Below are positions 30,181 to 45,825 of a stretch of DNA of 64,000 nt, one piece after another. Below the pieces are notes generated by a model. It was not told the origin of the DNA. It searched no databases and saw only the letters and a program-made list of their open reading frames with translations. The stretch spans positions 1-64,000 of the forward strand of contig NZ_JAQNDL010000001.1 of the NCBI RefSeq assembly GCF_028368995.1, given 5' to 3'. A program made the translations under genes and the position numbers. Each line of letters starts with the position of its first letter. Position 1 is the first letter of the stretch. The stretch comes from Nannocystis bainbridge. Lineage in GTDB: Bacteria > Myxococcota_A > Polyangia > Nannocystales > Nannocystaceae.

Positions 30181-33069
30181 TCAGCGCTCGCTCGGATCGA
30201 GGCCCTGGATCCCCGCCACCATCACCGCGTGCAGCCGCGGCTCGTCGATGTGGGCCGCGATCGCGTCGGCGGTCAGGTCGCGCAGGCGGACGATGTCGAC
30301 CAGCGTCTTGCCCGCCGGCGTGATCGGCGGCAGCACCTGCACCTCGATCGGCACGTGGCGCGGCAGCCATGTCCCGTCATGGAGCGCGTTGCGAGTGCCG
30401 CGCAGCGCGATCGGCACCACCGGCACACCTGTCTCGCAGGCCAGGCGGAACGCCCCGAGCTTGAACGGGCGCAGCCCGGCCTCGCGGCTGAACGTGCCCT
30501 CCGGGAACACCACCACCGGCGAGCCCGACCGCAGCACCTCCGCCACCGCCTCGAGCCCTGCCAGCGCGCGCTCGGCCTGCAGCCGCTCGATCAGCACGTG
30601 GCCCGCCCGCTGGATCAGCGGCCCGAAGGCCCGGTTGTCGCGGCACTCGCCCTTGACCACGAAGCGGATCGTGTCGGGCAGCGCCGCCAGCAGCACGAAC
30701 GGGTCGAGGTAGCTGCAGTGATTAGGCGCCAGCACACATGGCCCTTCGGGCATGTTCTCGAGGCCAGTCACTTGCGGGCGCAGGCCGATGGTCGTCAGCG
30801 TCGCGCGGGCCACGTTGCGCGAGAAGCTGCGCAGCGGCTTGCCCGCCGGGATCAGGCGGCCGGCCGCGGTCGAGGCCGCCAGCATCCCGCCGAACGTGCC
30901 GAGCGCGAAGCTGCCGTACGCGACCTCGCCGGCGCGCCCGGCCAGCGCCTTCGCGCGACGCGGCAGCCCGCGCAGGTAAAGGCCCGCCGCCTGGCGCGCG
31001 AACGATCCGTGACTGCGGCCCAGCTCGCCCGCCAGATACAGCCGACGCGTGTCGCTGCGGCGGATCTTCCCGCTCGAGGTCTTCGGCACCGCGCCCGGCC
31101 CGGTCAGCACCACGCGATCGGGCGGGACGCCCACGGTGCTGGCGATCGCCTCGCCGATCTTCTGCTGCAGCGCCTGCCGGGCCTCGGGGCGCTCCTCCTT
31201 GGTCTCCGCGACCACCACGATCGACTCGGTCCCGCTCGCCTCGTCGCGCACGGCGAACGCGGCCACGCAGCCCTGGCGCACCCCCGGCACCGCGCCCGCG
31301 GCCGCCTCGATCTCGTGCGGGTAGTAGTTGCGGCCGCCCTTGATGATCAGGTCCTTCACGCGGCCCGAGATGAACAGCTCGCCATCCACCAGATAACCGA
31401 GGTCGCCCGAGTCGACCCAACCGTCGGCCAGCTTGACCTTCGCCGTCGCCTCCGGGTTGCGGTAGTAGCCCTTGAACGCCGACGGCCCGCGGAACAGGAT
31501 CCGGCCCTGACGGCGGTCCGGCAGCGGCGCCCCGGCCTCGTCGGCGATCCGCACCTCGTGGCTGGGCACCGCCGCGCCGCAGCCGACGAACTGCAGCACC
31601 TCGCTCTCGGGCGCCTCCCCTGCGGCCGCTCGCGCCTCGCCGCTCCCCTCGAACGTCGCCCGCTCGACCCGATCGACGAAGGGTCCGCGGCCCGGCGGCG
31701 GGAACGTCACCGCGACCATGTTCTCGGCCAGGCCGTAGGCGCAGAACAGCGCCTCGCGGTGGAACCCCGCCGGCGCCAGGTGGGCGGCGAAGCGATCGAG
31801 CGTGCTCGCCAGGATCGGCTCCGAGCCGTTGAGCAGGGCCCGGATCGGCCCCAGCTGCAGCGGCGCGATCGTCTCCGGCGGGACCCGCTTGACGCACAGG
31901 TCGAACGCGAAGTTGGGCGCGCACGAGATCGTGCCCTTGTAGTGCGAGAACGCCTGCAGCCACCGCTCGGGCCGGGCCAGGAACGTCACCGGCGACAGGA
32001 TCACCGTGGCTGTCCCGAAGTACAGGTTCATCAGCCACCCGCCGACCAGCCCCATGTCGTGGTAGAGCGGCAGCCAGCTGATCATCACGTCGCCGGCCCG
32101 CAGCCCGCAGCCCTCGGCCGCCGCGCGGATGTTGGCGAGCACGTTGGCGTGCGTCAGCTCGACGCCCTTGGGGTCGCCGGTGCTGCCCGACGTGTACTGC
32201 AGCAGCGCCGTGTCCTCGCCGCGCAAGTCGGCCGCCACCGCCGTGTCGAGGCTGGCGTCGGCCAGCGCCTCGTCGACGTCGACCACCTGCCCGAGCGCCG
32301 GCACCTGATCGCGCACCAGCTCGGCGACCCGGGCCGCGCGCGCGAACGTGATCAGCACCTCGGCCTCGGCGTTGGCCAGGATCTGCGCCTCGCGCTGGAT
32401 GTACTCGGCGATCCGGTCGAGGCGGAACGGCGGGTACAGCGGCACCGGCACCCCGCCGGCCAGCTGCGCGCCCATGAACGCCGCGAAGTACCCGCGCGAC
32501 GTCGGCAGCATGATCGCCACCTTGGCGCCCGGCTTCAGCCCGCGCCGCCGCAGCGCCGCCGCCACCCGCCCGGCGTCGCGCCGCAGCGCCCCGTACGTGA
32601 TCGCCTCCTCGCGCCCGTCCTCGCGCAGCAGCATGACGTGGACCCGCCCCGGCGTGCGCCCGGCGTGGTACTCGAGCGCCTCGATCAGCGTCTGCGCGGC
32701 GGTCGGCGCCGGCGACGGCGGCTCTGTCGGCAAGGACATGTCCTCGGAGACATGTGCTTTCGGACCTGCGCTCACGGACATGTCCGCAGCGCCATCCCCG
32801 CGCGCCTGCCGGGCCAGCGCCACCAGCTGACGCGGGGTGTCGGCGACGCTGAGCGCCTCCTCCGGGAACACGACCCCGAGGCGGGCCTCGAGCCGGCCGA
32901 GCAGCTCGACGCGCTCGAGGCTGCCGAGGCCGAGCTCGCGCTCGAGCGAGGCGTCGAGGTTGAGGTGGCCGAGGCCGCGTCCGTCGCCGACGGCGGAGAT
33001 GAGCTCGCCGACGACGGCGAGGACCGTGGCCTCCTCGATCGGGCCCGGAGCGGAGGGCGTGCCTGACAT
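30181..33069 (-). CDS. ACP - fatty acyl-AMP ligase - PlsC-type acyltransferase fusion
   Basis: LGLGSLERVEL (ACP), QYTSGSTGDPKG, SWLPLYHDMGL, YGLAE, SGDLG, PKTSSGK; NHCSYLD, FPEGT. Confidence 0.92.
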   Translation of the reverse strand: MSGTPSAPGPIEEATVLAVVGELISAVGDGRGLGHLNLDASLERELGLGSLERVELLGRLEARLGVVFPEEALSVADTPRQLVALARQARGDGAADMSVSAGPKAHVSEDMSLPTEPPSPAPTAAQTLIEALEYHAGRTPGRVHVMLLREDGREEAITYGALRRDAGRVAAALRRRGLKPGAKVAIMLPTSRGYFAAFMGAQLAGGVPVPLYPPFRLDRIAEYIQREAQILANAEAEVLITFARAARVAELVRDQVPALGQVVDVDEALADASLDTAVAADLRGEDTALLQYTSGSTGDPKGVELTHANVLANIRAAAEGCGLRAGDVMISWLPLYHDMGLVGGWLMNLYFGTATVILSPVTFLARPERWLQAFSHYKGTISCAPNFAFDLCVKRVPPETIAPLQLGPIRALLNGSEPILASTLDRFAAHLAPAGFHREALFCAYGLAENMVAVTFPPPGRGPFVDRVERATFEGSGEARAAAGEAPESEVLQFVGCGAAVPSHEVRIADEAGAPLPDRRQGRILFRGPSAFKGYYRNPEATAKVKLADGWVDSGDLGYLVDGELFISGRVKDLIIKGGRNYYPHEIEAAAGAVPGVRQGCVAAFAVRDEASGTESIVVVAETKEERPEARQALQQKIGEAIASTVGVPPDRVVLTGPGAVPKTSSGKIRRSDTRRLYLAGELGRSHGSFARQAAGLYLRGLPRRAKALAGRAGEVAYGSFALGTFGGMLAASTAAGRLIPAGKPLRSFSRNVARATLTTIGLRPQVTGLENMPEGPCVLAPNHCSYLDPFVLLAALPDTIRFVVKGECRDNRAFGPLIQRAGHVLIERLQAERALAGLEAVAEVLRSGSPVVVFPEGTFSREAGLRPFKLGAFRLACETGVPVVPIALRGTRNALHDGTWLPRHVPIEVQVLPPITPAGKTLVDIVRLRDLTADAIAAHIDEPRLHAVMVAGIQGLDPSER

Positions 33070-33148
33070 GCGCGGGACGATACCCGATCCGCGGCGCCCC
33101 GCCGTCACGCCCGCGGCGGGCCCAAGCGCACGCGCGGGCGGCCGCGGC

Positions 33149-34612
33149 TCACTTCAGCTTGAACTCGATGCGCCGGTTCTTGGCCTTGCCGGTCTTGGAG
33201 TTGTTGTCGGCGATCGGCTCGTCGGGGCCAGCGCCGCGGGTCGTGATCCGCGCGGAGTCGATCCCCTTGTCGGTCAGGTACTTCTTGACCGCGTCGGCGC
33301 GCCGCTTCGAAAGGTCGACGTTGTGGTCGCGGTCGCCGGAGCTGTCGGTGTGGCCGCTGATCTCGACCTTCACCGAGGGGAAGTCCTTCAGCACCTTGAC
33401 CGCGTTGTCGAGCGTCGCCTTCGAGGTCTTCTTGATCGAGTCCTTGTCGATGTCGAAGAAGATGCCCTTGATGACGCCGGTGAACTTGGTGACCGCGCGC
33501 GGGATTTCGTCGGCGCAGCCGTCCTCGTCCTGATAGTTGTTGCGGGTCTCGGGCACGGTCGGGCACTTGTCGACGCGGTCGGGGATCCCGTCCTTGTCCT
33601 TGTCGGGCAGCGGGCAGCCGTCGGGCGCGATGCCCTTGTCGTCGGGGCACTTGTCCTTGCTGTCGACGAAGCCGTCGCCGTCGCGGTCCTTCTCCGGGCA
33701 GCCGTCGGGGGCGATGCCCCGCTCCTGCGGGCAGGCGTCGACCGAGTCGAGGAACCCGTCGCCGTCGGCGTCGCCCTCGCCCGGCTCCGGGCAGCCGTCG
33801 GGCGCCACGCCCGGGACCGTCACGCACCTGTCGACCGAGTCCTTGAAGCCGTCGCCGTCGCTGTCCGGATCGTCCCTGGTGACCGGCTGCTTCTTGCGCA
33901 GCACGAACGACAGCCCGAGCAGCACCTCGATGTGGTGCGTGCGGCCGCCGTCGATCCCGTACTGCGCGGACGCGTTGTCGCGGACATCGAGGCGCAGCGC
34001 CAGGTAGTTGTTGATGTAGAACTTCACGCCGCCGCCGAAGTGGATCGCCGGGTCGACGTCGCCCCCGAGCGCCGACGTGCCGAGCAGCCCGGGCCCGATC
34101 AGCACGAACGGCGAGATCCGGTACGGCAGCTGGGCCAGCACGTACCCACGGAACCCGCCGAGCACCGCGCCCTTGCCGTCGTTCTCGGTCTTCGTCGGCA
34201 TGATCGCGCCCTCGAGCTCGAGCCCGAGGAACGACAGCGGATAGAAGCCCGCCCGCAGGCCGATGTCCGGCGCGACCTTCTTGTACGGCTGCCAGTTGAT
34301 CGGGTCGCCCGGCTGCGGCGGCAGGTACAGCTCGTGATCGCGGGCCGGGAACATCAGGCCGGCGAAGATCCCGAACTCGCCCGACATCGCCGTCGGTCGG
34401 TAGCGCTTGATCCACGGCACCCCGCTGCGATCCTTCGCCTTCTTCGCCCGCTTCGGCTTCCCGCCCGCCGCGTCGCCCGAGGCCTCGGCGCCGGCTGGCG
34501 ACAGCGACACCGAGCCGCCCGCCTGCGGCCCCTCGGGTTCCTGCGCCGCCGCCGACAGCGACAGCGACGATACGACCACAGCAGCGGCGACGGGGAGCAA
34601 GAACTTGGACAT
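33149..34612 (-). CDS. OmpA family protein: N-terminal beta-barrel, thrombospondin type-3 repeats, peptidoglycan-binding domain
   Basis: Signal peptide; DxDxDG..D..D.CP repeats; ISGHTD, LSKRRA, NRRIEF. Confidence 0.93.
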   Translation of the reverse strand: MSKFLLPVAAAVVVSSLSLSAAAQEPEGPQAGGSVSLSPAGAEASGDAAGGKPKRAKKAKDRSGVPWIKRYRPTAMSGEFGIFAGLMFPARDHELYLPPQPGDPINWQPYKKVAPDIGLRAGFYPLSFLGLELEGAIMPTKTENDGKGAVLGGFRGYVLAQLPYRISPFVLIGPGLLGTSALGGDVDPAIHFGGGVKFYINNYLALRLDVRDNASAQYGIDGGRTHHIEVLLGLSFVLRKKQPVTRDDPDSDGDGFKDSVDRCVTVPGVAPDGCPEPGEGDADGDGFLDSVDACPQERGIAPDGCPEKDRDGDGFVDSKDKCPDDKGIAPDGCPLPDKDKDGIPDRVDKCPTVPETRNNYQDEDGCADEIPRAVTKFTGVIKGIFFDIDKDSIKKTSKATLDNAVKVLKDFPSVKVEISGHTDSSGDRDHNVDLSKRRADAVKKYLTDKGIDSARITTRGAGPDEPIADNNSKTGKAKNRRIEFKLK

Positions 34613-35910: not shown

Positions 35911-36525
35911 TCAGATCTGGTTCTCGAGCACGCACTCGCCCGCGACGCAGCGGGCCACCTTGGCCGTGCACTGGTCGATCGCCACGCACGGCACCTCGTC
36001 GGGTGGCACCGGGCACTGGGCCAGGCGGTCGATGCAGTCGCGGGCGATCGCCAGCTCGCGCCCGCCGAGGCTGCACGGGCAGCAGCCGCCGACCACCTTC
36101 GTGCAGTCGACGTCGTCGACGCACGCGCAGCGCGGCTCCTGCTGGCACTGACACACCTCGCAGCCGCGCTCGTCGGTCTCGAACCCGAACGGACACAGCA
36201 GCTTGCAAAGGACCGGCTGGCAGCGCGACGCCGCGTCGACGCAGACCCCGCCGCCGCAGTCGAGGCTGCAGGTCGTCGCCCCTGTCTGCGGATCGCAGCT
36301 GCACAGCGACGGCACGCACTGCGGGCCCTTCTGACACACCTGTCCCTCCGGACACCCCGCCTGCACGCAGCCCGGCTGCGTGAAGCCCTCGCACGGATCG
36401 CCGGGAGCGTCCGTCTCCGCGACCGCGGGCACCACCTCCGCCGCCTGCATCGTCACGCCCAGGGGCACGATGTCGCACGCCAGCGCCGCCGCCGACAGGA
36501 CCACCGACAATGGCAAAGCTCGCAT
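35911..36525 (-). CDS. Cys-rich lipoprotein with antistasin-like module
   Basis: MRALPLSVVLSAAALAC lipobox; CKLLCPFGFETDERGCEVCQC. Confidence 0.85.
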   Translation of the reverse strand: MRALPLSVVLSAAALACDIVPLGVTMQAAEVVPAVAETDAPGDPCEGFTQPGCVQAGCPEGQVCQKGPQCVPSLCSCDPQTGATTCSLDCGGGVCVDAASRCQPVLCKLLCPFGFETDERGCEVCQCQQEPRCACVDDVDCTKVVGGCCPCSLGGRELAIARDCIDRLAQCPVPPDEVPCVAIDQCTAKVARCVAGECVLENQI

Positions 36526-36699
36526 GATCGGACTCCTCGCCCCGCAGCGTGGTCCGGCCCCTCGCCCCCGCAAGCCCGCGAGCCGCCCGCCGCCCGCCGC
36601 CGCGGTGCCGCCCACGCGCCTCCGCTCGGGCTGCTGCTCGCTCGCGGCGCCGCGGCTCCGGCGGCCCGCCCGCTCCGGCGGCCGCGTCTGCTGCCTCAG

Positions 36700-36751
36700 G
36701 GACATGTCGTCGAGAACATGACCCCCAGGACATGCCCATCTCGACATGTCC
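36700..36751. repeat. 14-bp-period palindromic array, 4 units
   Basis: GGACATGTCG TCGA GAACATGACC CCCA GGACATGCCC ATCT CGACATGTCC. Confidence 0.85.
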
Positions 36752-36826
36752 TCGGATCAGGCCCTCGAAGCCATCACGGGAGGCGCGACGCGCGGCGGGG
36801 AGCCGCCGCGGCCCCGCCCGCGCCGC

Positions 36827-37699
36827 TCACTGCAGCACGCACTGCCCCTGCACGCACGCCGCCTTCGCGTCGGTGCACAGGTAGACCGCCGGGCACGCCA
36901 CCTGGTCGGGCGGCAGCGGGCACGGCTCGAGCTGATCGGCGCAGGCCGCGGCGACCGCCACCTCGCCTCCGCCCATGTTGCACGAGCAGCAGCCCGGGCT
37001 CGCCTTGACGCAGTCGGCGTCGACCTGGCAGCCGCACGCCGGCGGCTCGTTGCACGCGCAGACCTCACAGCCCTGCTCGTCCTGCTTGAACCCGAACTCG
37101 CAGAACAGGTTGCACACGACGGGGTTGCACACTGCCCCCTCGACGCACGTACCGCCGCCGCAATCGGGGGTGCACACGATCTGCTGCGACGCCTCGTCGC
37201 ACAGGCAGGCCGACGGCACGCACTCGATCTCGAAGTTGCACATCTGGCCGTCGGGACAGCCCTTGTCGAGGCAGCCCGGCGGCTCGAAGCCGTCGCAGAC
37301 GTTGCCGCCGGTGCTGGTCTCGCCGGTGGTCGTCGTCTCCCCGGTCGTCGTCGTCGTCTCCCCGGTCGTCGTCGTCGTCTCGCCGGTCGTGCCCGTCGTC
37401 GTCGTCTCGCCCGTGGTCGTGGTCGTCGTGCTCGTGGTCTCGCCGCCGGTCTGCGGACCGCTGGTCGAGGTGCTCTCGGTCTCGCCGCCGGTGGCCCCGC
37501 CCTCGGTCGGTCCGCCGGTCCCGGTGGTCGCCGCGCTACCCGAACCGGTGTCGGCGGTCGCCTCGCTGCTCGCGGTGCTCTCGCCGGTCTCGCCGGCCTC
37601 GGTGCTCCCGCCGGACTGGCCACACCCCATCACCAGCGCCAGCGCGGCCCCACTCGCTGCGCGCGCCCATGCTTGCTGCATCGTCATCATCATCGTCAT
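36827..37699 (-). CDS. Cys-rich lipoprotein with Thr-rich linker and antistasin-like module (paralog of 35911..36525)
   Basis: LVMGC lipobox; GETTTTT repeats; CNLFCEFGFKQDEQGCEVCAC; same Cys spacing as the neighbour. Confidence 0.87.
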   Translation of the reverse strand: MTMMMTMQQAWARAASGAALALVMGCGQSGGSTEAGETGESTASSEATADTGSGSAATTGTGGPTEGGATGGETESTSTSGPQTGGETTSTTTTTTGETTTTGTTGETTTTTGETTTTTGETTTTGETSTGGNVCDGFEPPGCLDKGCPDGQMCNFEIECVPSACLCDEASQQIVCTPDCGGGTCVEGAVCNPVVCNLFCEFGFKQDEQGCEVCACNEPPACGCQVDADCVKASPGCCSCNMGGGEVAVAAACADQLEPCPLPPDQVACPAVYLCTDAKAACVQGQCVLQ

Positions 37700-37823
37700 C
37701 GCTAACTAAGCTCCTTCGTCGCGGGCATAGCCGACCCTCGCGGGCCCGACAAGCGACGCAGGACGCCGCTCGCCGCCTCGCGCTGGCCTTTGCAGCCACG
37801 CGCCGCGCTTCCCCCTTTTTAAA

Positions 37824-38846
37824 TTAAACCCGCACCACGGCGCAGGGCGGCGGCGCGCCCGGCAGTTGCAGGCAATAGGCAACGAAAGCCGCGAATACCG
37901 GACGCGGCGGCCCCTCGGTCGGCAGCGCGTGAAGGTGCAGCGCCGGCACCACGTTGACCTCGAGCAGCAGCGCTGCGCCCGCGCTCGCGGCCGTCGGCTG
38001 CGTGAACGCGGCCATCGGCCCGCGCAGGTCGACCCCGCCGACATCGACCCCCAGCAGATCGCACGCCGACGCCGCGACCGCCAGCCACTCCGGATGCACG
38101 ACCTCGGTCCGATCGATCACCTCGAGCTCCTCGCCCGTGATCTCGACCTCGCGCTCGCCCGGGATCGCCGCCTCGAGATCGAGCCCATAGACCTCGAGGT
38201 GCCCCTCGAGATCTTCCTCCGCCTCGATCTGGTCCATCGAGCGCAGGCTCGGCGCCGTCCACGTCCCGCGCCGCGGGTCGCGGTTCAGCGCCGCCACCTG
38301 CGCCTCGGCGCTGCGGCCGGTCGCGAGCTTCGGCCGCACCACCTCGACCGCCGCGCTCGCTCGCCCGCCGATCACCGCCACCCGCAGGTTGGTGCCGGCG
38401 ATGAACGGCTCGACCAGCACCTCCTCGTCGAGGTCGATCGCGCGGGCCCGGTCGCGCGCGCGGATCAGCGTCGCCAGGTCGCGCACGTCGGTCGCCACCC
38501 CGACCCCGCGGTTGCCCCAATTCGGCTTGACCACCAGCCGCCCGTGACGCGCCAGCAGCTCCCGGACCGCCGGCCCGTGGATGTCGCCGGCCTCGTCGAC
38601 CAGCACCCCCGCGGCGCACGGCAGCCCGCGCGCCCGCAGCAGCTCGCGGCTCAGGTGCTTGTTGTTGGCCAGCCCCTGGGCCACCTGTGTCAGGAACGGC
38701 GAGCGGGTCTTGCTGACGACCGCCGTCCGCTCGCCGTGCGTCAGGCGCATGAAGTAGTCGGTGTGCTCGCGCCCGAGCGGCTCGGCGCGGGCCCCGAGCT
38801 CCGCCGCGGCCGCCGCGATCAGCTGGTTCGTCCGGCTCCAGACCAT
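37824..38846 (-). CDS. ATP-grasp ligase (cyanophycin synthetase N-terminal / GshF-like)
   Basis: NKHLSRELL..GLP, LVVKPNWGNRGVGV, VLVEPFIAG..LRVAVIGG, GGVDL, LEVN..P. Confidence 0.85.
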   Translation of the reverse strand: MVWSRTNQLIAAAAAELGARAEPLGREHTDYFMRLTHGERTAVVSKTRSPFLTQVAQGLANNKHLSRELLRARGLPCAAGVLVDEAGDIHGPAVRELLARHGRLVVKPNWGNRGVGVATDVRDLATLIRARDRARAIDLDEEVLVEPFIAGTNLRVAVIGGRASAAVEVVRPKLATGRSAEAQVAALNRDPRRGTWTAPSLRSMDQIEAEEDLEGHLEVYGLDLEAAIPGEREVEITGEELEVIDRTEVVHPEWLAVAASACDLLGVDVGGVDLRGPMAAFTQPTAASAGAALLLEVNVVPALHLHALPTEGPPRPVFAAFVAYCLQLPGAPPPCAVVRV

Positions 38847-38848
38847 AC

Positions 38849-38914
38849 GGACATGTCCCTTCAGACCTGGCCTAATCGCCCTGTCCCTTGGAGCCTGTCG
38901 TATAGGACAGCAGC
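38849..38914. repeat. 14-bp-period array spanning the SpeE C-terminus and intergenic gap
   Basis: GGACATGTCC CTTC AGACCTGGCC TAAT CGCCCTGTCC CTTG GAGCCTGTCG TATA GGACAG. Confidence 0.8.
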
Positions 38915-39792
38915 GGCCCCTCGCCGGTGATCACCTCGCCCGGCTGCTCGATGCGGCGGCGCAGGATCGGCGGCAGCTCCATCGCCGCGCGGTGGCTGGT
39001 CGGCGTGTACCACTGCAGCTCGCCGAGCGCGGCGATCCGGGCCGCCAGGTCGGGCGGCTCGGCCTCGAGCGGCCGGCGCGACATCAGCGCGAAGCCCCAC
39101 AGGCAGTGGAACGACGGCACGAAGCCGTGGGCGAAGCGGACGTGGGGGAACACCGCCTGCAGCGTGCTGCGGACCGTGCGGGCCAGCTTGAGGTCGAGCG
39201 GGTCGAGCTCGCCGGCCTGCAGCACGCACACCCCGTCGTCGGCCAGCGCGCGCAGGACCAGGGCGAAGAACTGGGTCGAGAACAGCGCCGCCGACGGCCC
39301 CTCGTCGGTCGGATCGGTGACGTCGAGGACGATGACGTCGAAGCTGCCCGGCGCGGCCTGGCGCAGCGTGTCGAAGATGTCCTCGGTGCGCAGCTCGACC
39401 CGCGGATCGTCGAGGCTGCCGGCGTGCCAGCTCGGCAGGTGCTCCTTGCACAGCGCCACCACCTCCGCGTCGAGGTCGACCGACACGATCGACTCGACCG
39501 AGCGGTGGCGCAGGATCTCGCGCAGCGCCGCGCCCTCGCCGGTGCCGCCGACCAGCACCCGCCGCGGCCCGCCGTGCAGCACCAGCGCCGGGTGGATCAG
39601 CGCCTCGTGGTAGAGCGCCTCGTCGGCCTCGGCCGACTGGACCAGCCCGTCGAGGAACAGGATCCGCCCGTACGCGCTCGTGTCGGCGACGATGGCCTCC
39701 TGGTACTGCGTCTGCACGTGCGCCACCAGGCGCTCGACGCTGTAGAGGATCGACACGCCCTCGATCTCGGGCTCTTGCAGCACCAGGTGCAT
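38872..39792 (-). CDS. speE: Polyamine aminopropyltransferase (spermidine synthase family)
   Basis: YGRILFLDGLVQS, YHEALIHP, VLVGGTGEG, VDLD, FDVIVLDVTDP; ATG 39792. Confidence 0.88.
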   Translation of the reverse strand: MHLVLQEPEIEGVSILYSVERLVAHVQTQYQEAIVADTSAYGRILFLDGLVQSAEADEALYHEALIHPALVLHGGPRRVLVGGTGEGAALREILRHRSVESIVSVDLDAEVVALCKEHLPSWHAGSLDDPRVELRTEDIFDTLRQAAPGSFDVIVLDVTDPTDEGPSAALFSTQFFALVLRALADDGVCVLQAGELDPLDLKLARTVRSTLQAVFPHVRFAHGFVPSFHCLWGFALMSRRPLEAEPPDLAARIAALGELQWYTPTSHRAAMELPPILRRRIEQPGEVITGEGPLLSYTTGSKGQGD

Positions 39793-39809
39793 CGCGTCTG
39801 TCCTTTCGC

Positions 39810-40292
39810 TCAGCCGCGCGGGCGGCGGCGGCTGACGATCATACCCAGACCGGTGGCGACCAGGCCGAGCATCCCGAGGCCCGCGGCCAGCGCGATCGCC
39901 TGCCCCGGCAGACCGATGATCTCGCCGGTGTGCAGCTTGAACAGCAGCCGCGTCAGCCCGCCCGCGGTGCGCCGGCGCTCGATCAGGGCCCCGTCGCCGG
40001 CGAAGTACAGCACCGTCTCCGCGTCGTCGTCGACCCAGAACACCCACGGGTCGTCGGGCTCGGTGGCCAGGGCGATGTCGGTGATCGCCTCGTCGCCGGC
40101 CTCGCGCTGGGCGCGCGCGAGCAGCTCCATCAATGGCAGCGGCTGCTCGACCACCGGCGCGCTCGGGGCCGGCGTCTTCATGCAGCCGCGGAACACCAGG
40201 ATCGCCCCCGTCAACGCGATCACCGCGAACACCGCCGACAGCGTCGCGCCGACCGCCTGGTGCCACTTGAAGAGGCTGCGTCGCATGCTCAT
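39810..40292 (-). CDS. PepSY-associated TM helix protein
   Basis: FKWHQAVG...ALTGAIL; LFKLHTGEIIG...TGL. Confidence 0.88.
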   Translation of the reverse strand: MSMRRSLFKWHQAVGATLSAVFAVIALTGAILVFRGCMKTPAPSAPVVEQPLPLMELLARAQREAGDEAITDIALATEPDDPWVFWVDDDAETVLYFAGDGALIERRRTAGGLTRLLFKLHTGEIIGLPGQAIALAAGLGMLGLVATGLGMIVSRRRPRG

Positions 40293-40332
40293 GAAGACAT
40301 GCTCCTTCGGACATGCTCTTTAAACCATGTCC
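40281..40332. repeat. 14-bp-period palindromic array, 4 units, covering the PepSY start
   Basis: TCGCATGCTC ATGA AGACATGCTC CTTC GGACATGCTC TTTA AACCATGTCC. Confidence 0.85.
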
Positions 40333-42786
40333 TCACATCATGGCCCCCCACGTGCGCCAGAACCACCGCTCGATCCGGCGCGCGCCCGCCGTCCAGACCC
40401 GGCGGTTGACCTTGCCGCGCTTCCAGCTGGTCCGGGCCTGCTCGCCGGCCTTGCCGCGGATCCACTCGTGGGCGAAGCCCAGGTTGAAGTAGAACGTGCG
40501 CGGCCGCATCGCCAGGATGCCGCCGTTGATGTCGTCGGAGCGGGTGAACCACACCTCGTTGAGCAGGTTCTTGACGCCGACGGTCGCCTCGAGCCGCCAG
40601 CCCTGCGGCAGGCTGGTGCGGTAGCCGAGCCACGCGCCCATCAGCGTGTAGGCCGGCATCGTCCCGACCTCGCCGGTCGCGCGCGGCGCGTCCCAGTTGG
40701 CGTAGTCGGTGTACTGCTTGTCGACGAACTCGACCTTGGTGCCGACGCGCAGGCCGAACGGCGCCTCGTAGCTGGCCGCGCCCCACACCTCGTGGGCCGG
40801 GTACCACGGCATGCGGTTGTTGGTGTAGAGGTCGCGCAGCACCCGGCTGCCGTTGTACGCGTAGCCGGCGTTGAGCTCGAGCCCTTCGACCTTCTCCCAC
40901 ACCTCGCCGGGCAGCCACTCGACGTCGACCTCGGCCCCGTAGGTGTGGGCCGCCGGGATGATGTCGATCGCGTTCTCGCCCTCGTCACGCAGGTTGTTGA
41001 AGTAGCGGTACCAGCCGTCGACGGTCGCGTACACCCCGCCGAGCTCCATCAGCTTCACGCCCGCCTCGACCGTGTCGGCCAGCTCGGGCTTGATGAAGCG
41101 CAGCGCCCGGCCCATCGCCTCGCCGGGGTTGATCGGCTGGATCGCGCCCGACAGGTAGCTCGGGGCCCCGAACGAGCGCCCGTAGCCGAGGTAGAGCCCG
41201 ACGTGATCGCCGCCGTACCACAGCGACGCCGCCGGCAGCGGCCCGCCGTACAGCGGCCGCGGGTAGCTCAGGCCCTCGAGCACGTTGTAGAAGCTCTGCT
41301 TGGTCAGCTCGAGGCGCACGCCGGCGGTCAGCACCAGCTTGGTGTCGAGCAGATAGATCTTGTCCTCGAGGTACAGCGAGTAGCCGCCGATCCGGCCGTC
41401 GAAGCAGCGCAGCGCGTCGGGCGAGCCCTCGGGCAGGAGCGTGCCGCGCGGGCACACGCGCGCGTCGCCGTCGGCCTCGAGCTTGTCGCCGGGGCGGTCG
41501 GGGAACTCGACGCGGAAGCCGCGGATCCGCGCCGTCTCGAACACCCCGCGGGTGCCGATCGAGAGGTCGTGGAAGCCGCCGCGGTGGCGCACGCGGAACG
41601 CGTAGCGCGGCTCGATGCCGACCACGTCGAACGCCCGCGGCTGCACCAGCAGGAACGTCGGCGCCGCGCCGAGGTTGCGGTCCTCGTTGGTCGCCTGGAC
41701 CACGCGCCGCAGCGTGTGGCTGTAAAACGCGATCACCTGCAGCTCGTGCTCGGCCTTGGGCCGCCAGTGCAGCTTGAGGCTGGTGCCCTCGCGGTGGCCG
41801 TTGAAGGTGTCGTACGGGCGCTTGCTGGCGAACCGGTCCTCGGCGTACAGCTCGGAGTCGACGCCGCCGGGCAGGTTGGTCTTCTCCCAGAACAGGTGCG
41901 TGCTCGACAGCAGGTCGAGCCGCTTCGTCAGCGGCACGGCGAGCTTGACGATCCCGCCGTGGCTCTGAAACTCGCTGTGCTCGCGGTACGTCTTGCCGAA
42001 CCGCGGCGCGTACTCGACGTACACGCCGACGCCCTTGTGCGTGCCGCCGTACGAGGCCGCCGCGCCGGCGTCGCCGAACTGGTCCGACTGGGCGAACACC
42101 GACACCGTCGGGTTCTTCGGGATCGGGTGCGAGACCATGTTGAACACGCCGCCCGACGTCCACGGCCCGAACCGCACCGACGAGCCGCCGCGCACGGTGT
42201 CGACCTTGGCGATCTGGAACAGCGACAGCGGGAATAGCACCATCGACGGCGCGCCGTACGGCGCCGGCGCCACCGGCACCTCGTCGAGCAGGATGGTCGC
42301 CTGCTCCGACAGCCGCGGGTCGGCGCCGCGGACCGCGAGGTTCAGCTTGGTCGACGAAGTCGAAAGCGCCGACGCGCCCTCGACCGCGCGCACCCCCGGG
42401 ACCTTGTCGAGCAGCTCCGCCACCCCGCTCGCGCCCTGGGCCTTCGCGTCGTCGACGTCGACCACCCGGCGCCCGCCCGCGTGGCGGTGGGCGTCGACTC
42501 GGGTCGAGCGGCCCAGCAGGTCGGTCGTGACCTCGATGTCGCGCGACTCGCCGGGCAGCAGCTTGGTGTCGCTCGCGGGCGGCGTGCTCACCGGCGCGGC
42601 CACGCTCGCGGCTGCAGCCCCGGTCGAACCTGGCTCTTCGGGCATGCTCTTCGGGACCTGTCCCGCGGAGAATGTCCAATCGGGCCTGTCCTCGGGGGCA
42701 GGTACCTCCGGCGCGGCGTCCGGCCCCGCGTATGCGCGAGGGTCGGCCGCCAGCAGCAGGGCGAGTGGGAGCGCGAGCGACGACAC
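40333..42786 (-). CDS. TonB-dependent receptor, FecA-like
   Basis: Plug: LLDKVPGV, NLAVRG, ILLDEVPVAPAPYG, VRGGSSVRFGP..GGVFN; barrel end GVKNLLNE.W...PRTFY. Confidence 0.93.
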   Translation of the reverse strand: MSSLALPLALLLAADPRAYAGPDAAPEVPAPEDRPDWTFSAGQVPKSMPEEPGSTGAAAASVAAPVSTPPASDTKLLPGESRDIEVTTDLLGRSTRVDAHRHAGGRRVVDVDDAKAQGASGVAELLDKVPGVRAVEGASALSTSSTKLNLAVRGADPRLSEQATILLDEVPVAPAPYGAPSMVLFPLSLFQIAKVDTVRGGSSVRFGPWTSGGVFNMVSHPIPKNPTVSVFAQSDQFGDAGAAASYGGTHKGVGVYVEYAPRFGKTYREHSEFQSHGGIVKLAVPLTKRLDLLSSTHLFWEKTNLPGGVDSELYAEDRFASKRPYDTFNGHREGTSLKLHWRPKAEHELQVIAFYSHTLRRVVQATNEDRNLGAAPTFLLVQPRAFDVVGIEPRYAFRVRHRGGFHDLSIGTRGVFETARIRGFRVEFPDRPGDKLEADGDARVCPRGTLLPEGSPDALRCFDGRIGGYSLYLEDKIYLLDTKLVLTAGVRLELTKQSFYNVLEGLSYPRPLYGGPLPAASLWYGGDHVGLYLGYGRSFGAPSYLSGAIQPINPGEAMGRALRFIKPELADTVEAGVKLMELGGVYATVDGWYRYFNNLRDEGENAIDIIPAAHTYGAEVDVEWLPGEVWEKVEGLELNAGYAYNGSRVLRDLYTNNRMPWYPAHEVWGAASYEAPFGLRVGTKVEFVDKQYTDYANWDAPRATGEVGTMPAYTLMGAWLGYRTSLPQGWRLEATVGVKNLLNEVWFTRSDDINGGILAMRPRTFYFNLGFAHEWIRGKAGEQARTSWKRGKVNRRVWTAGARRIERWFWRTWGAMM

Positions 42787-42793
42787 GGCCGGC

Positions 42794-43966
42794 TCAGGGC
42801 ACGACGACGGCCGTGGCCCCGCGGATCCGCAGGCTGCGCTCGGGATCGGTGAACAGCGGCCCGAGCTCGTCGTGGACCGCGAACTTCCAGCTGCCCGGCG
42901 CGTCGGCGGTCGGCTCGGTGATCTCGTAGACCGTGCCGCCGATGCCGACGGCGTAGAGCGAGCCCTGGACCCGCGCGAGCCCCTCGATGTCGAAGCCGGC
43001 CGGGATGTCGTCGATGTACGGCCCGTAGGCGCGCGGCTCCGGCTTGTCGCCGGTCGCGGCGACGCGCAGCAGCTCGTGACGGCCGGTCGGCAGCGACTCG
43101 GACATCTCGCCGCGGACCAGCGCCAGCACGTCGCCGTCGGGCCCGGTGGCCATGTCGCCGGCGACGCCGACCTTCTCGTCGAACTCGGCGTGGATCGAGC
43201 AGATCGGCGCGCACGCGTAGTAGGACGGGTCCTTGCTGATGTCGCTCGGCAGCACGCAGTGCTTCGGCGCGGCCAGGAACTCGGGGTCGAGCGCGAACAG
43301 GGCGCCGCGGGCGTCGAGGCCGTTGCCGGGCTTGCCGGCCGAGGCGGCGAACAGCGCGTCGCCGACGAACTCGAGCCCGTTCATGCTCTGGCGCCAGTAG
43401 CAGGCGTCGGTCGCCGCGTCCTTCACGTCGCCGTACTTGAAGGCGTAGCGGACGCTCTCGATGCGGTTGTCGGCGCGGGTCCAGTCGGGCACGCCGAGGG
43501 TCATCAGGCCCCACTCGTCGTTGAGCGGGTCGTAGCTGAGGCCCCACAGGCCCCGGTCGGCGTGCCAGGCGATGTCGCGCACGGTGAACCGCATCAGCGA
43601 CGTGTCGGCCATCGAGATCGAGCCCATCTTCTCGTCGAGCCACAGGTTGCCGACCTTGGCCAGGCAGCCCTCGCCGTCGCACTTGCGCGACGGGTCGTAG
43701 AGGTACATCGCGCTGCCGACGAACCGGCCCTTGCTGTCGAGCGCGAAGTTGCTCTGGAAGTTGGCCCCGCCGTCGGTCGGCTTGGTGTTGACGATCAGCA
43801 TCAGCTCGCCCCGCAGCGGCTGATCTTCGGGACAGCCTTCACAGAGGTCGACCTCCGGCGGCAGTCCATCACCCTCGTACGTGTCCGGCTGCATCGGCTC
43901 GAAGCCGACGCAACCCGACGCGACCGTCGCCACGCCGGCGAGGGCAATATTGAAAATCGTTTTCAT
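42794..43966 (-). CDS. Lipoprotein of unknown function (beta-rich, Cys-containing)
   Basis: MKTIFNIALAGVATVASGC lipobox; GC3-biased frame; stop 7 nt before the receptor start. Confidence 0.82.
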   Translation of the reverse strand: MKTIFNIALAGVATVASGCVGFEPMQPDTYEGDGLPPEVDLCEGCPEDQPLRGELMLIVNTKPTDGGANFQSNFALDSKGRFVGSAMYLYDPSRKCDGEGCLAKVGNLWLDEKMGSISMADTSLMRFTVRDIAWHADRGLWGLSYDPLNDEWGLMTLGVPDWTRADNRIESVRYAFKYGDVKDAATDACYWRQSMNGLEFVGDALFAASAGKPGNGLDARGALFALDPEFLAAPKHCVLPSDISKDPSYYACAPICSIHAEFDEKVGVAGDMATGPDGDVLALVRGEMSESLPTGRHELLRVAATGDKPEPRAYGPYIDDIPAGFDIEGLARVQGSLYAVGIGGTVYEITEPTADAPGSWKFAVHDELGPLFTDPERSLRIRGATAVVVP

Positions 43967-43967
43967 T
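43949..43967. promoter_or_regulatory. Fur-box-like inverted repeat
   Basis: ATTGAAAATCGTTTTCATT (TGAAAA-N3-TTTTCA), AT-rich island overlapping the start codon at 43966. Confidence 0.7.
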
Positions 43968-44043
43968 TTGCCGGTTCTGTAGCACCGGAGTTCCCCGGGG
44001 GTCAAGGGGGGAACGCTCCCCAAGAAACAGGAAATCAATGACC

Positions 44044-44068
44044 TTGCAAATGATTTTCCTTTTCATTA
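44044..44068. promoter_or_regulatory. Second Fur-box-like AT-rich site
   Basis: TTGCAAATGATTTTCCTTTTCATTA upstream of the divergent lipoprotein. Confidence 0.5.
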
Positions 44069-44112
44069 TGACCGGCGCCGTTCGCTCGAAAGCGTTCCCT
44101 CAGGAGACTTCC

Positions 44113-45381
44113 ATGCGCCTGCGCAGCCTTCCCCTACTCGCCCTCTCGTTCGGTCTCGTCGCCTGTCCCGGCAGCGGCTCGGACACCGACGGCAGCACCA
44201 CCGACTCCACCACCGCCGGCCCGACCACCGAGCCGTCGACCGAGGGCACCGCGGGCACCGAGACGGCCGGCCCGACGACCACCGAGGACGAGCCGACCGC
44301 CGGCACGACCGGTGAGCCCGGCGGCGACCTGAACCCGCACACCCTGGGCGACCACGCCAGCCAGGGCTGCATCGACGCCATGGCCGGCGCCGCGACCTTC
44401 CTCGCCGCCACCGCCGAGTTCGACGCCGACGCCGCCGCCGCCGCCTACACCGACGCGCTCAAGATCTACGTGCAGGCGCTCGACACCGCCAACGAGCGCG
44501 ACGACGACAGCGCCATCACGGCCGCCCTCGCCGACGCCGACGGCCCCGGCGCCGCCCTGGCCGAGGGTCACCTCTACACCAGCCTGATGTTCCAGCTGCG
44601 GGCCAACCTCTCGGCCGTCGAGACCGGCGCCGAGGACAAGTACGCCGCCTGGGACGAGGCCCACTGCGTGTGGGACGGCGGCCTGCGCAGCCTGGCCGAG
44701 CGGGCCCAGGCCGAGGGCTGGACCGGCGCCGGCGACCCCATCGTCGCCGACATCGACGCCGCCTTCGCCGCCGGCCACGACGGCCTCAGCGGCGAGCCGC
44801 CGAGCACCGCCGGGGACGACTGGCGGATCCCCCCGAACAAGCAGATCATCGAGAAGACGCTCTTCCGCGCCGCCCACCGCGACATCGTCGGCCAGTCGAT
44901 CGGCGCGACCATGGCCGTCGACGCCGCCCGGGCCGCCCGCGCGCTCGGCGTGTTCGGCATCGTCCGCGACCGCCTGCAGGACCGCAACACCCCCGGCATC
45001 GCCGTCATCGAGGCCATGCTGGCCGGCGACCCGGCCATGATCAGCGGCTCGCTGATCGCGGTCGAGATGGACAAGGCGTTCGCCAAGCGGACCCGCAACT
45101 ACGCCGACCAGGCGTTCAGCGAGGGCCTCGGGATCCCGCCGAGCTACAAGGGCGCGGTCGAGGGGCGCACCTATGCCAAGCTCATCGTCGCCGGGATGGG
45201 TTCGGCGATGATGAACACCGAGGCCTACCTGGCCGACTGGGAAGAGTACGCGGAGCTGGTGCGGACCGGCGACGACGAGGCGGCGGCCCAGGAGGTCAGT
45301 CAGCGGCTCATCGACGCCACGTGCGCCTACCAGACCGCGCTCGGAATCGCCGCCTGCACCGGCAGCGATGACGAGACGTAG
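44113..45381 (+). CDS. All-helical lipoprotein, probably iron-regulated (imelysin/FEA1-like?)
   Basis: CAGGAG RBS; GLVAC lipobox; Thr/Gly linker; WDEA motif; family call is tentative. Confidence 0.8.
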   Translation: MRLRSLPLLALSFGLVACPGSGSDTDGSTTDSTTAGPTTEPSTEGTAGTETAGPTTTEDEPTAGTTGEPGGDLNPHTLGDHASQGCIDAMAGAATFLAATAEFDADAAAAAYTDALKIYVQALDTANERDDDSAITAALADADGPGAALAEGHLYTSLMFQLRANLSAVETGAEDKYAAWDEAHCVWDGGLRSLAERAQAEGWTGAGDPIVADIDAAFAAGHDGLSGEPPSTAGDDWRIPPNKQIIEKTLFRAAHRDIVGQSIGATMAVDAARAARALGVFGIVRDRLQDRNTPGIAVIEAMLAGDPAMISGSLIAVEMDKAFAKRTRNYADQAFSEGLGIPPSYKGAVEGRTYAKLIVAGMGSAMMNTEAYLADWEEYAELVRTGDDEAAAQEVSQRLIDATCAYQTALGIAACTGSDDET

Positions 45382-45408
45382 GTCGACGGCGCAATATGAC
45401 CGCACTGC

Positions 45409-45825
45409 ATGGCCGCGATTTTTTCCGGGTACAGCGAGTTCGGCCGAGTCCTGGCCGACTACATCACGCGTGAAGCCTCGGTGCGCGGGGCGGTGCTCAG
45501 CGACAACGAGGGCGACGCTGTCGACCTCGCCTTCGATGAGGACCGCACCACCGCCCTCGAGGTCCAGATCCTCGGCGCCCAGCTCGACCGGGCCGCCGAG
45601 CGGCTGTCCACGTGGTTCCAGGATCGCGGTCGAGGCCCCTGTGAGATCTTGATTGAGGCAAGTCACGGGAGCCTCTGCTACGCGTTCGTCGCGGGCGCCT
45701 ACGTGCTCGCGGTCTTCTCCGAGCCCGCCCAGGGCGACGACGAGGCCCGCTCCGCCGAGGCCGAACGGGTGCTCGCGGGCTTCCGGGGCCTGCGCCGTGA
45801 CATCGAGGCCCTCCTGGAGGCCTGA
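45409..45825 (+). CDS. Roadblock/LC7 (MglB-like) domain protein
   Basis: VRGAVLSDNEGDAV...YVLAVF pattern; 138 aa. Confidence 0.65.
   Translation: MAAIFSGYSEFGRVLADYITREASVRGAVLSDNEGDAVDLAFDEDRTTALEVQILGAQLDRAAERLSTWFQDRGRGPCEILIEASHGSLCYAFVAGAYVLAVFSEPAQGDDEARSAEAERVLAGFRGLRRDIEALLEA

Follow-up and report, generated by a model that had tools for sequence, protein, structure and literature searches.

Does an operon of Nannocystis bainbridge that places a TonB-dependent receptor and a PepSY_TM protein ahead of a SpeE-like protein and an ATP-grasp protein encode both the synthesis and the uptake of one iron-binding molecule? The locus lies in a 64,000-nucleotide stretch (positions 1 to 64,000 of contig NZ_JAQNDL010000001.1), referred to here as the window, which belongs to a Nannocystis genome of 11.05 Mb in 5 contigs with about 72% G+C. 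A sequence-only reading had proposed a two-enzyme metallophore pathway with its own uptake route, independent of nonribosomal peptide synthetases (NRPSs) and of NRPS-independent siderophore (NIS) synthetases. As judged from gene content and order across relatives, the locus is a mosaic operon of two evolutionary units. The first is an iron-boxed uptake unit consisting of lipoprotein A, the receptor, PepSY_TM, a divergent lipoprotein and two predicted operators; the second, SpeE and ATP-grasp, is well supported by the same comparison as a putative dedicated polyamine-tailoring pair confined to Nannocystaceae. That this pair makes the molecule imported by the receptor is a serious possibility, though one somewhat short of an even chance. 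The features of the locus are as follows.

43966..42794, minus strand: lipoprotein A (390 aa, lipobox VASGC)
42786..40333, minus strand: TonB-dependent receptor, FecA-like (817 aa; Plug and barrel)
40293..40332, minus strand: conserved hairpin region between the receptor and PepSY genes
40292..39810, minus strand: half-size PepSY_TM protein (160 aa)
39792..38872, minus strand: SpeE-like protein (306 aa)
38846..37824, minus strand: stand-alone ATP-grasp protein (340 aa)
37819..37846, minus strand: terminator-like site (hairpin with a T/A run) closing the ATP-grasp gene
44113..45381, plus strand: divergent lipoprotein gene (422 aa, lipobox LVAC)
44045..44065: Fur-like box 1, two overlapping two-mismatch matches to TGAAA-N5-TTTCA, adjoining the start of the divergent lipoprotein
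43951..43965: Fur-like box 2, an exact TGAAA-N5-TTTCA palindrome covering the start codon and codons 1-6 of lipoprotein A
43977..44005, minus strand: promoter-like element (TTGACC, 17 nt, TG-CTACAG)

The gene order, strand and spacing described in the sequence-only reading were reproduced: five minus-strand genes follow one another from lipoprotein A to ATP-grasp with intergenic gaps of 7, 40, 17 and 25 nt, opposite a divergent lipoprotein gene. This arrangement supports one tight same-strand unit, and the hairpin at 37819..37846 is the sole terminator-like site on either strand within 37400-45600, with none inside the operon. A 480-aa SpeE open reading frame (ORF) in the plain ORF list was rejected as over-extended across the PepSY gene in another frame, an artefact attributable to the high G+C content. 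The accompanying claim that the window lacks an NRPS, an NIS synthetase and speD agreed with our searches, which met none of them. IucA/IucC is absent from the window, the genome search placing its matches only at C1:2.23 Mb and C4:0.16 Mb (C1 to C5 denote the contigs), as is S-adenosylmethionine decarboxylase, whose sole match in the genome is at C1:4.46 Mb; no condensation domain was found in the Pfam-scanned ORFs of the window (21-25.3 kb lay outside the scan). The locus itself contains no IucA/IucC gene and no condensation/adenylation module that would place it among NIS or NRPS systems.

Linkage was compared in 16 informative Nannocystaceae loci (L021-L036), several of them from genomes that are also in the related-genome set described below. 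SpeE and ATP-grasp were linked in all 16 loci, which answers the concern, raised with the original proposal, that they might be unlinked in relatives, and SpeE stood directly before ATP-grasp in 15. All five genes were contiguous in 10 loci, spanning 53-95% SpeE identity, and box pairs were present in every one of these 10 full loci; the 17-nt and 25-nt spacings were retained within Nannocystis. Three further loci had PepSY_TM near the enzyme pair without the receptor (two of them cut by contig ends), and three had SpeE and ATP-grasp alone. A gene of 420-456 aa divergent from SpeE occurred in 8 of the 16 loci, with bacterial homospermidine synthases as its only sequence matches in PDB (E 7e-11 to 9e-7); tblastn found no such homospermidine-synthase-like gene in the genome of the window. 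In one Enhygromyxa metagenome-assembled genome (L035 478-1896), a flavin amine oxidase gene adjoins the homospermidine-synthase-like gene on the same strand. Plesiocystis pacifica (L032 3502-5829) carries TerB-like zinc-ribbon and Mem_trans genes between SpeE and ATP-grasp on the same strand, and this Mem_trans gene (auxin-efflux-carrier family) is the only transporter inside the SpeE/ATP-grasp pair in any locus. A metallo-beta-lactamase-fold gene, the TerB-like gene and the Mem_trans transporter were each seen in single loci only and were set aside as conserved partners.

The two units also coincide in their distribution. Of 41 related genomes, 13 have both an ATP-grasp ortholog and lipoprotein A, one (64% complete) has lipoprotein A only, and searches for either were negative in the remaining 27 (71-100% complete). 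Among the 46 genomes searched, none held ATP-grasp without lipoprotein A, and all five genomes in which the units are unlinked hold both. We placed these occurrences on an RpoB tree with 15 holders and 9 non-holders (24 genomes in all), which excludes G004, G012, G016 and G021 (no rpoB match), G008 (partial) and G043 (same as G023). Holders fell into two separated groups, with 3 changes needed, at least 2 of which are forced by well-supported branches. This pattern fits joint gain or loss of both units; it involves few events, among genomes related to one another.

Several observations nevertheless weigh against a shared function of the enzyme pair and the receptor. The proposed co-occurrence of receptor, SpeE and ATP-grasp stood in the 10 contiguous loci and failed in the remaining six (L027, L029, L030, L032, L033 and L035), where the pair and the receptor lie apart. 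Iron control is the norm for siderophore synthesis genes; in those six loci, no Fur-like box (up to 2 mismatches) was found near SpeE, ATP-grasp, the homospermidine-synthase-like gene or PepSY. The five genomes with the pair apart from the receptor each have one lipoprotein A homolog, adjoining a receptor homolog, and each of these five unlinked uptake units carries two exact boxes; the corresponding stretches of 9.6-14 kb contain no PepSY, SpeE, ATP-grasp or homospermidine-synthase-like gene. In two of the 10 full loci (L031 and L036), an opposite-strand homospermidine-synthase-like gene parts PepSY_TM from SpeE, and therefore co-transcription of the five genes is possible only in the Nannocystis-type layout and is not ancestral. 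The enzyme pair thus appears to be an older module of its own, which weakens the case for a common product. PepSY_TM is single-copy in the Enhygromyxa/Plesiocystis group, and in two genomes it lies 16-52 nt behind sucCD, so synteny by itself may account for its closeness to the pair in this group; a distance of 11 kb within one contig separates PepSY_TM and the pair in Enhygromyxa salina, and in one genome of the group an exact box stands about 30 nt upstream of PepSY_TM. The window, moreover, contains no exporter and no enzyme of hydroxamate, catechol or citrate chemistry.

The genome has siderophore genes elsewhere, and these bear on the same question. An NIS cluster at C1:2223684-2233400 (L039, L150) begins with an exact Fur-like box followed by an LCM-type methyltransferase and an IucA/IucC-FhuF-GNAT fusion, and continues with an IucC-like gene and a full-length PepSY_TM, the only other PepSY_TM gene of the genome. 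No TonB receptor was found near it within C1:2220200-2242000, so the FecA-like receptor could serve that citrate-type siderophore instead. A third IucA/IucC-FhuF gene, at C4:163 kb (L152), is paired with a ribose-phosphate-pyrophosphokinase (Prs)-like gene and lacks a Fur-like box. Most holders of the locus have it, and in G013 (C22:910 kb, L151) it lies 8.6 kb from ATP-grasp; with no box and with unrelated genes between, it was treated as a coincidence and rejected as a partner of the locus. IucA/IucC genes were present in 18 of 18 holders and 2 of 11 non-holders, and therefore the distribution described above may reflect a broader set of iron-acquisition genes.

Together these findings lend appreciable weight to an alternative in which the two units are neighbours without a shared function, an explanation we regard as a real contender, though one that we would not expect to prove right. 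The receptor side would take up a foreign siderophore or the organism's own citrate-hydroxamate NIS siderophore in a Xus/Hiu-like manner, SpeE and ATP-grasp would produce a polyamine conjugate, for the cell interior or the envelope, that has nothing to do with iron, and the pair would have come under the iron promoter in Nannocystis only through loss of the intervening opposite-strand gene. The solitary uptake units with both boxes, the boxless pair where it is unlinked, the receptorless NIS cluster and the near-identical phyletic pattern of the NIS genes all agree with this, and the homospermidine-synthase-like gene in half of the loci, joined in one of them by a flavin amine oxidase, suggests true polyamine metabolism. 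Siderophore-pirating systems of lipoprotein, receptor and PepSY are also known, as described in the accessible text of PMC13142918 and PMC12424826. Mere adjacency is harder to reconcile with the contiguity kept in 10 of 16 loci over wide divergence, with an ATP-grasp gene never seen without the lipoprotein, with at least two to three joint gains or losses on the RpoB tree and with the 17-nt and 25-nt spacings kept within Nannocystis; the NIS cluster, for its part, has a full-length PepSY_TM of its own.

Whether the operon answers to iron was approached through its boxes. The sequence-only reading had placed Fur-like boxes between the divergent lipoproteins, and one exact and one two-mismatch copy were indeed found there. 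An equivalent of box 1 occupies the same relative position in all 10 linked loci and all five unlinked uptake units. The promoter-like element, with TTGACC at the -35 position and a TG-extended, -10-like second part, leaves a nearly zero leader ahead of the lipoprotein A ATG at 43966; its TTGAC(C/G) and a TGnTA-type second element are retained in 10 of 10 aligned loci, and a generic promoter scan found no consensus promoter. Codons 1-8 of lipoprotein A have a G+C fraction at third codon positions (GC3) of 0.5, compared with 0.97 for the remaining gene, with A/T-ending codons lying under box 2.

Genome-wide, exact TGAAA-N5-TTTCA occurs at 6 sites in 11 Mb versus 1 for a reversed control, and the motif with up to one mismatch at 37 versus 13. 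We examined 16 loci that took in all 5 of the remaining exact sites and 14 of 31 one-mismatch sites, the latter picked by eye for A/T-rich spacers. Four of the five other exact sites lie at iron genes: the IucA/IucC operon, a TonB receptor followed by HmuY, bfd with a ferritin-like bfr (where the exact box is accompanied by two more near-matches) and an imelysin. The fifth is a set of tandem boxes at C1:3414493-3414519 (L042), between a DUF3570 gene and a gene for a 625-aa membrane protein. The latter has a C-terminal spermine-synthase domain, making it a second polyamine-type gene under a Fur-like motif. Among the 11 loci with one-mismatch sites only, one site precedes a Peripla_BP_2/FecCD transporter, one precedes an extracytoplasmic function (ECF) sigma factor, and the other nine show no evident tie to iron. 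The genome contains Fur-family genes: three equal-scoring matches near contig ends (C1:4523313, C1:4524963 and C2:3022155) probably represent a single gene in sequence that is repeated or was assembled redundantly, and a fourth, more divergent match lies at C1:4477366. Because the box motif elsewhere in the genome marks iron genes, iron control of the operon promoter is well supported in silico, and the motif is taken as the putative Fur-type operator of this organism. The operon has at its promoter what appears to be a Fur-type operator common to other iron genes, as would be expected of a member of the Fur regulon.

The operator also bears on the possibility that the locus handles another metal, such as copper or zinc, in the manner of CrpH-type PepSY_TM/TonB systems or of zinc-controlled opine metallophores. 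A precedent exists in CrpH, a copper-linked PepSY_TM in an operon with a TonB-dependent copper transporter, according to the available text of PMC13038864. In Nannocystis, the motif is instead common to the bfd-bfr, heme receptor, NIS cluster and FecCD-type transport genes, the best family matches of the receptor are ferric dicitrate and siderophore receptor models, and no nicotianamine-synthase-like gene is present. We consider a role in another metal most improbable.

The first enzyme of the pair is an additional paralog. The SpeE-like protein matches Spermine_synth (PF01564; 133.2 bits versus a cut-off of 22.9) and the tetramerisation domain (34.7 versus 22.1), and it remains below the equivalog cut-offs of ordinary spermidine synthases (PRK00811, 236 versus 260; TIGR00417, 206.5 versus 249.55). 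The check for a separate housekeeping speE, suggested with the initial proposal, located one at C1:303864-304694 that passes both models (328.5 and 282.7) and is about 38% identical to the locus protein, together with an E. coli-type speD at C1:4455507-4456283 (272 bits versus a cut-off of 256). Since canonical speE and speD lie elsewhere, the SpeE of the locus is an extra paralog, and decarboxylated S-adenosylmethionine (dcSAM) can be supplied in trans by the unlinked speD. The best solved relatives are Thermus-type aminopropyltransferases (PDB 1uir/3anx and 7xif; E 1e-50 to 5e-52). The segments GGTGEGA and LDVTDP can be aligned with the Thermus enzyme, and neither varies among the 8 aligned sequences; they correspond to the GGxGEGA and D-x-T-D-P residues, which we take to be dcSAM-binding and catalytic motifs. 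Because these aminopropyltransferase motifs are kept, the SpeE-like protein probably uses dcSAM. Likeness to the Thermus-type enzymes extends to a two-residue longer loop after D-x-T-D-P, whereas the scores below both equivalog cut-offs and a C-terminal extension of about 30 residues, conserved in the clade, set the locus SpeE apart.

The second enzyme belongs to the ATP-grasp superfamily and has its best match in the ATP-grasp part of cyanophycin synthetase (NCBIfam 144.7 bits; PDB 7lg5, E 1.7e-19, residues 54-336). The ATP-grasp half of GshF is matched more weakly (72.5 bits; PDB 3ln6, E 3e-10), and Pfam Dala_Dala_lig_C scores under threshold (21.3 versus 24). Lys107, Asp273 and Glu296 (E-x-N motif), presumably the functional ATP-grasp residues, are invariant or nearly so. 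Against the cyanophycin synthetase families, the protein scores 144.7 versus 877 and 122.9 versus 850, consistent with a lack of the full architecture: the likeness to the ATP-grasp (G) domain of CphA1, the best family and structure match for the ligase, covers core residues 54-336, whereas the 340-aa protein has neither the N-terminal nor the Mur-ligase-like domain found in the synthetases, which are 870-930 aa long. The ortholog family is very small, with 16 representatives at E <=1e-30 among 1.84 billion, and its named members are all Nannocystis, Enhygromyxa, Nannocystaceae or Myxococcales records. A first metagenome scan met none of the distant stand-alone relatives (30-44% identity). A second yielded 55 loci, 51 of them matching ATP-grasp at 28-34% and none with SpeE, PepSY, receptor or lipoprotein matches; from identity level alone, these 51 were taken as cyanophycin-synthetase-like. 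The one match in a non-myxobacterial genome lies within an 878-aa ORF, a size fitting cyanophycin synthetase, and a cluster look-up gave no names other than 'hypothetical protein' and 'cyanophycin synthetase'.

On the uptake side, lipoprotein A is always directly upstream of the receptor, in linked and unlinked loci, and is proposed to be a candidate ligand-binding partner of it. The protein gave no Pfam, NCBIfam or PDB sequence match and falls outside the XusB (DUF4374) family; its 93 relatives, all strong, are without a Pfam domain and come from Nannocystaceae-type Myxococcota. Protein-atlas features lead to beta-propeller families (0.91-0.93), as leads only. The divergent lipoprotein, which accompanies the receptor unit in 7 of the 10 linked loci and in 3 of the 5 unlinked units, has a signal peptide, a Thr/Glu/Pro-rich linker and an Ala-rich body, again with no Pfam, NCBIfam or PDB sequence match. 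Its atlas features lead to unnamed clusters and weakly to the iron-related Fea1/DUF4856 families (0.76-0.83), likewise as leads only. Its identity as an imelysin was rejected, a profile comparison with the boxed imelysin of the genome giving a probability of 0.1. The receptor is a TonB-dependent receptor by its Plug (44 bits versus a cut-off of 23.9) and barrel (94.7 versus 27) and scores below the equivalog cut-offs of FecA (NF041676, 273.3 versus 1100) and of TIGR01783 (118.8 versus 223.5). Its ORF runs 41 codons (window 40333-40455) past the usual barrel end (..FAHEW, residue 776) into an Arg/Lys/Trp-rich tail, which is kept in frame in Nannocystis relatives; other genera lack the tail, their alignments ending near residue 776. 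The spacer between receptor and PepSY (40293-40332) contains three CATGTC-type arms that can form alternative hairpins, one over the PepSY ribosome site (minimum free energy -16.4 kcal/mol, z -2.35); the spacer is retained in five Nannocystis loci, with a duplicate copy in one.

The PepSY_TM protein belongs to PF03929 (62.5 bits versus a cut-off of 28.8) with a match that spans only profile positions 174-294 of 295, corresponding to 2 transmembrane (TM) helices and one PepSY-like domain. It does not have the four TM helices, two PepSY domains and His pairs for two hemes of FoxB-type reductases; all 11 orthologs keep His11, His121 and a DDDxE motif unchanged, and a homodimer could rebuild the reductase core. 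Its position suggests one more role for the enzymes, in which SpeE and ATP-grasp serve PepSY_TM by making a polyamine-linked cytoplasmic cofactor or reductant that passes electrons to the membrane reductase, following a glutathionylspermidine-like logic. PepSY_TM is beside the pair in 13 of 16 loci, three of them without an adjoining receptor, and is 11 kb away in Enhygromyxa salina; the ligase also matches the ATP-grasp half of GshF glutathione synthetases, and the electron donor of FoxB-type proteins is described as unknown in the accessible part of PMC13038864. The locus has no thiol-forming gene, however, the position behind sucCD in the Enhygromyxa group suggests synteny rather than partnership, and such a cofactor would be without precedent, all of which make this role improbable.

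By the family scores and domain content examined, the locus falls outside the NIS, NRPS, cyanophycin synthetase and FecA families; its uptake part resembles Xus/hiu/Fox systems, and its enzyme part resembles phevamine logic and Thermus-type aminopropyltransferases. Opine metallophore clusters (staphylopine/pseudopaline cnt) also have a receptor gene adjoining an enzyme of S-adenosylmethionine-derived alkyl transfer, and relatives of the locus approach them by adding an NAD-type dehydrogenase-fold enzyme, the homospermidine-synthase-like protein. The differences are that the locus SpeE has dcSAM-aminopropyltransferase motifs and no match to the nicotianamine-synthase fold family, that the dehydrogenase-like gene is absent from this genome, and that control looks Fur-type and not Zur-type. 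FoxB is likewise said to be a receptor-linked PepSY reductase system. In hiuABC, a Fur-regulated receptor is combined with a PepSY reductase (PMC12424826, as far as its accessible text describes). With XusABC of Bacteroides and hiuABC/FoxAB, the locus shares a receptor and PepSY_TM in an iron-boxed unit, together with a lipoprotein, which not all of these systems have at the surface, and it has no inner-membrane siderophore permease, at the level of detail in the accessible portions of PMC13142918 and PMC12424826. It differs in that its lipoprotein is without DUF4374 and forms its own clade-limited family, that its PepSY_TM is half-size (160 aa, 2 TM helices), and that, as far as those portions describe, only the Nannocystis unit includes biosynthetic enzymes and a second, divergent lipoprotein.

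Phevamine, a spermidine-amino-acid amide built by ATP-grasp enzymes of the Pseudomonas syringae hsv operon, is the closest parallel discussed here for the enzymes (accessible text of PMC6187163). By gene content, both are small NRPS-free operons combining a polyamine-modifying enzyme with an ATP-grasp ligase; an aminopropyltransferase takes the place of the amidinotransferase and one ATP-grasp the place of two, as described there (PMC6187163), and no amidinotransferase was found among the scanned ORFs of the window. In the same portion of that paper, phevamine is not iron-linked and phevamine A is reported not to bind ferric iron (PMC6187163), a further point against a chelator made by the pair. 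No receptor/PepSY/SpeE/ATP-grasp locus of this kind was found in the literature, as searched by titles and abstract openings, with subscription-only papers outside the search.

How, then, could the two units work together? With the pair only 17 nt behind PepSY_TM, both enzymes should be read from the iron-controlled promoter in Nannocystis. Iron shortage would de-repress the operon, SpeE would lengthen a polyamine with dcSAM from the unlinked speD, and ATP-grasp would join a carboxylate, an amino acid or another acid, to the polyamine through an amide bond. The conjugate or a further product would leave the cell and bind iron, the ferric conjugate would be taken up by lipoprotein A and the receptor, and PepSY_TM, probably dimeric, would free the iron by periplasmic reduction, which would explain a locus without an inner-membrane importer. 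That the pair makes a polyamine-amide chelator is plausible, though clearly below even odds. The complete scheme, an undescribed NRPS- and NIS-free polyamine-amide route to which many relatives would add the homospermidine-synthase-like enzyme and in which new lipoproteins capture the chelator, the FecA-like receptor imports it and the half-size PepSY_TM unloads it, is rather unlikely as a whole. The idea of a two-enzyme metallophore with its own uptake thus survives in part: the boxed tight operon, the extra SpeE and the linked pair bear it out, whereas the boxless pair when unlinked, the separate uptake unit and the lack of an exporter or iron-ligand enzyme do not.

The surroundings and records of the locus add some context. 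The ATP-grasp and SpeE-like proteins are 89% and 97% identical, respectively, to Nannocystis pusilla proteins. Root RNA contigs from two libraries match brief stretches of the genes for the lipoprotein, the receptor, SpeE and ATP-grasp at 90-99% likeness; they gave no usable information on gene junctions, DNA carry-over is possible, and two further runs are probably DNA. Past the operon by 124 nt lie two paralogous Cys-rich genes with Antistasin-family matches (35911-37699, minus strand), and a plus-strand ORF of high GC3 at 36975..37709 is probably their antisense shadow. Beyond the divergent lipoprotein are a 138-aa ORF and ferredoxin and lysylphosphatidylglycerol (LPG)-synthase-like genes, retained only in close Nannocystis relatives. 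Farther away, a gene for a 990-aa Aas-like protein with PP-binding, AMP-binding and PlsC-type acyltransferase domains (30181-33153, minus strand) adjoins one for an OmpA-family protein with thrombospondin type 3 repeats.

If the pair does make the ligand of the receptor, aminopropyl transfer followed by ATP-grasp amidation would be a third siderophore logic beside NRPS and NIS synthesis; to our knowledge, genome-mining tools do not flag clusters of an aminopropyltransferase with an ATP-grasp gene. If the two units are neighbours only, the locus would combine a conventional operon for siderophore import with an adjacent, so far unexplored route to a polyamine conjugate. Regardless of the link between pair and receptor, the analysis provides a usable predicted Fur-type operator motif for Nannocystis and its relatives and delimits a lipoprotein family that is specific to the clade and goes with a TonB receptor, and the half-size PepSY_TM could help to define a minimal reductase unit.

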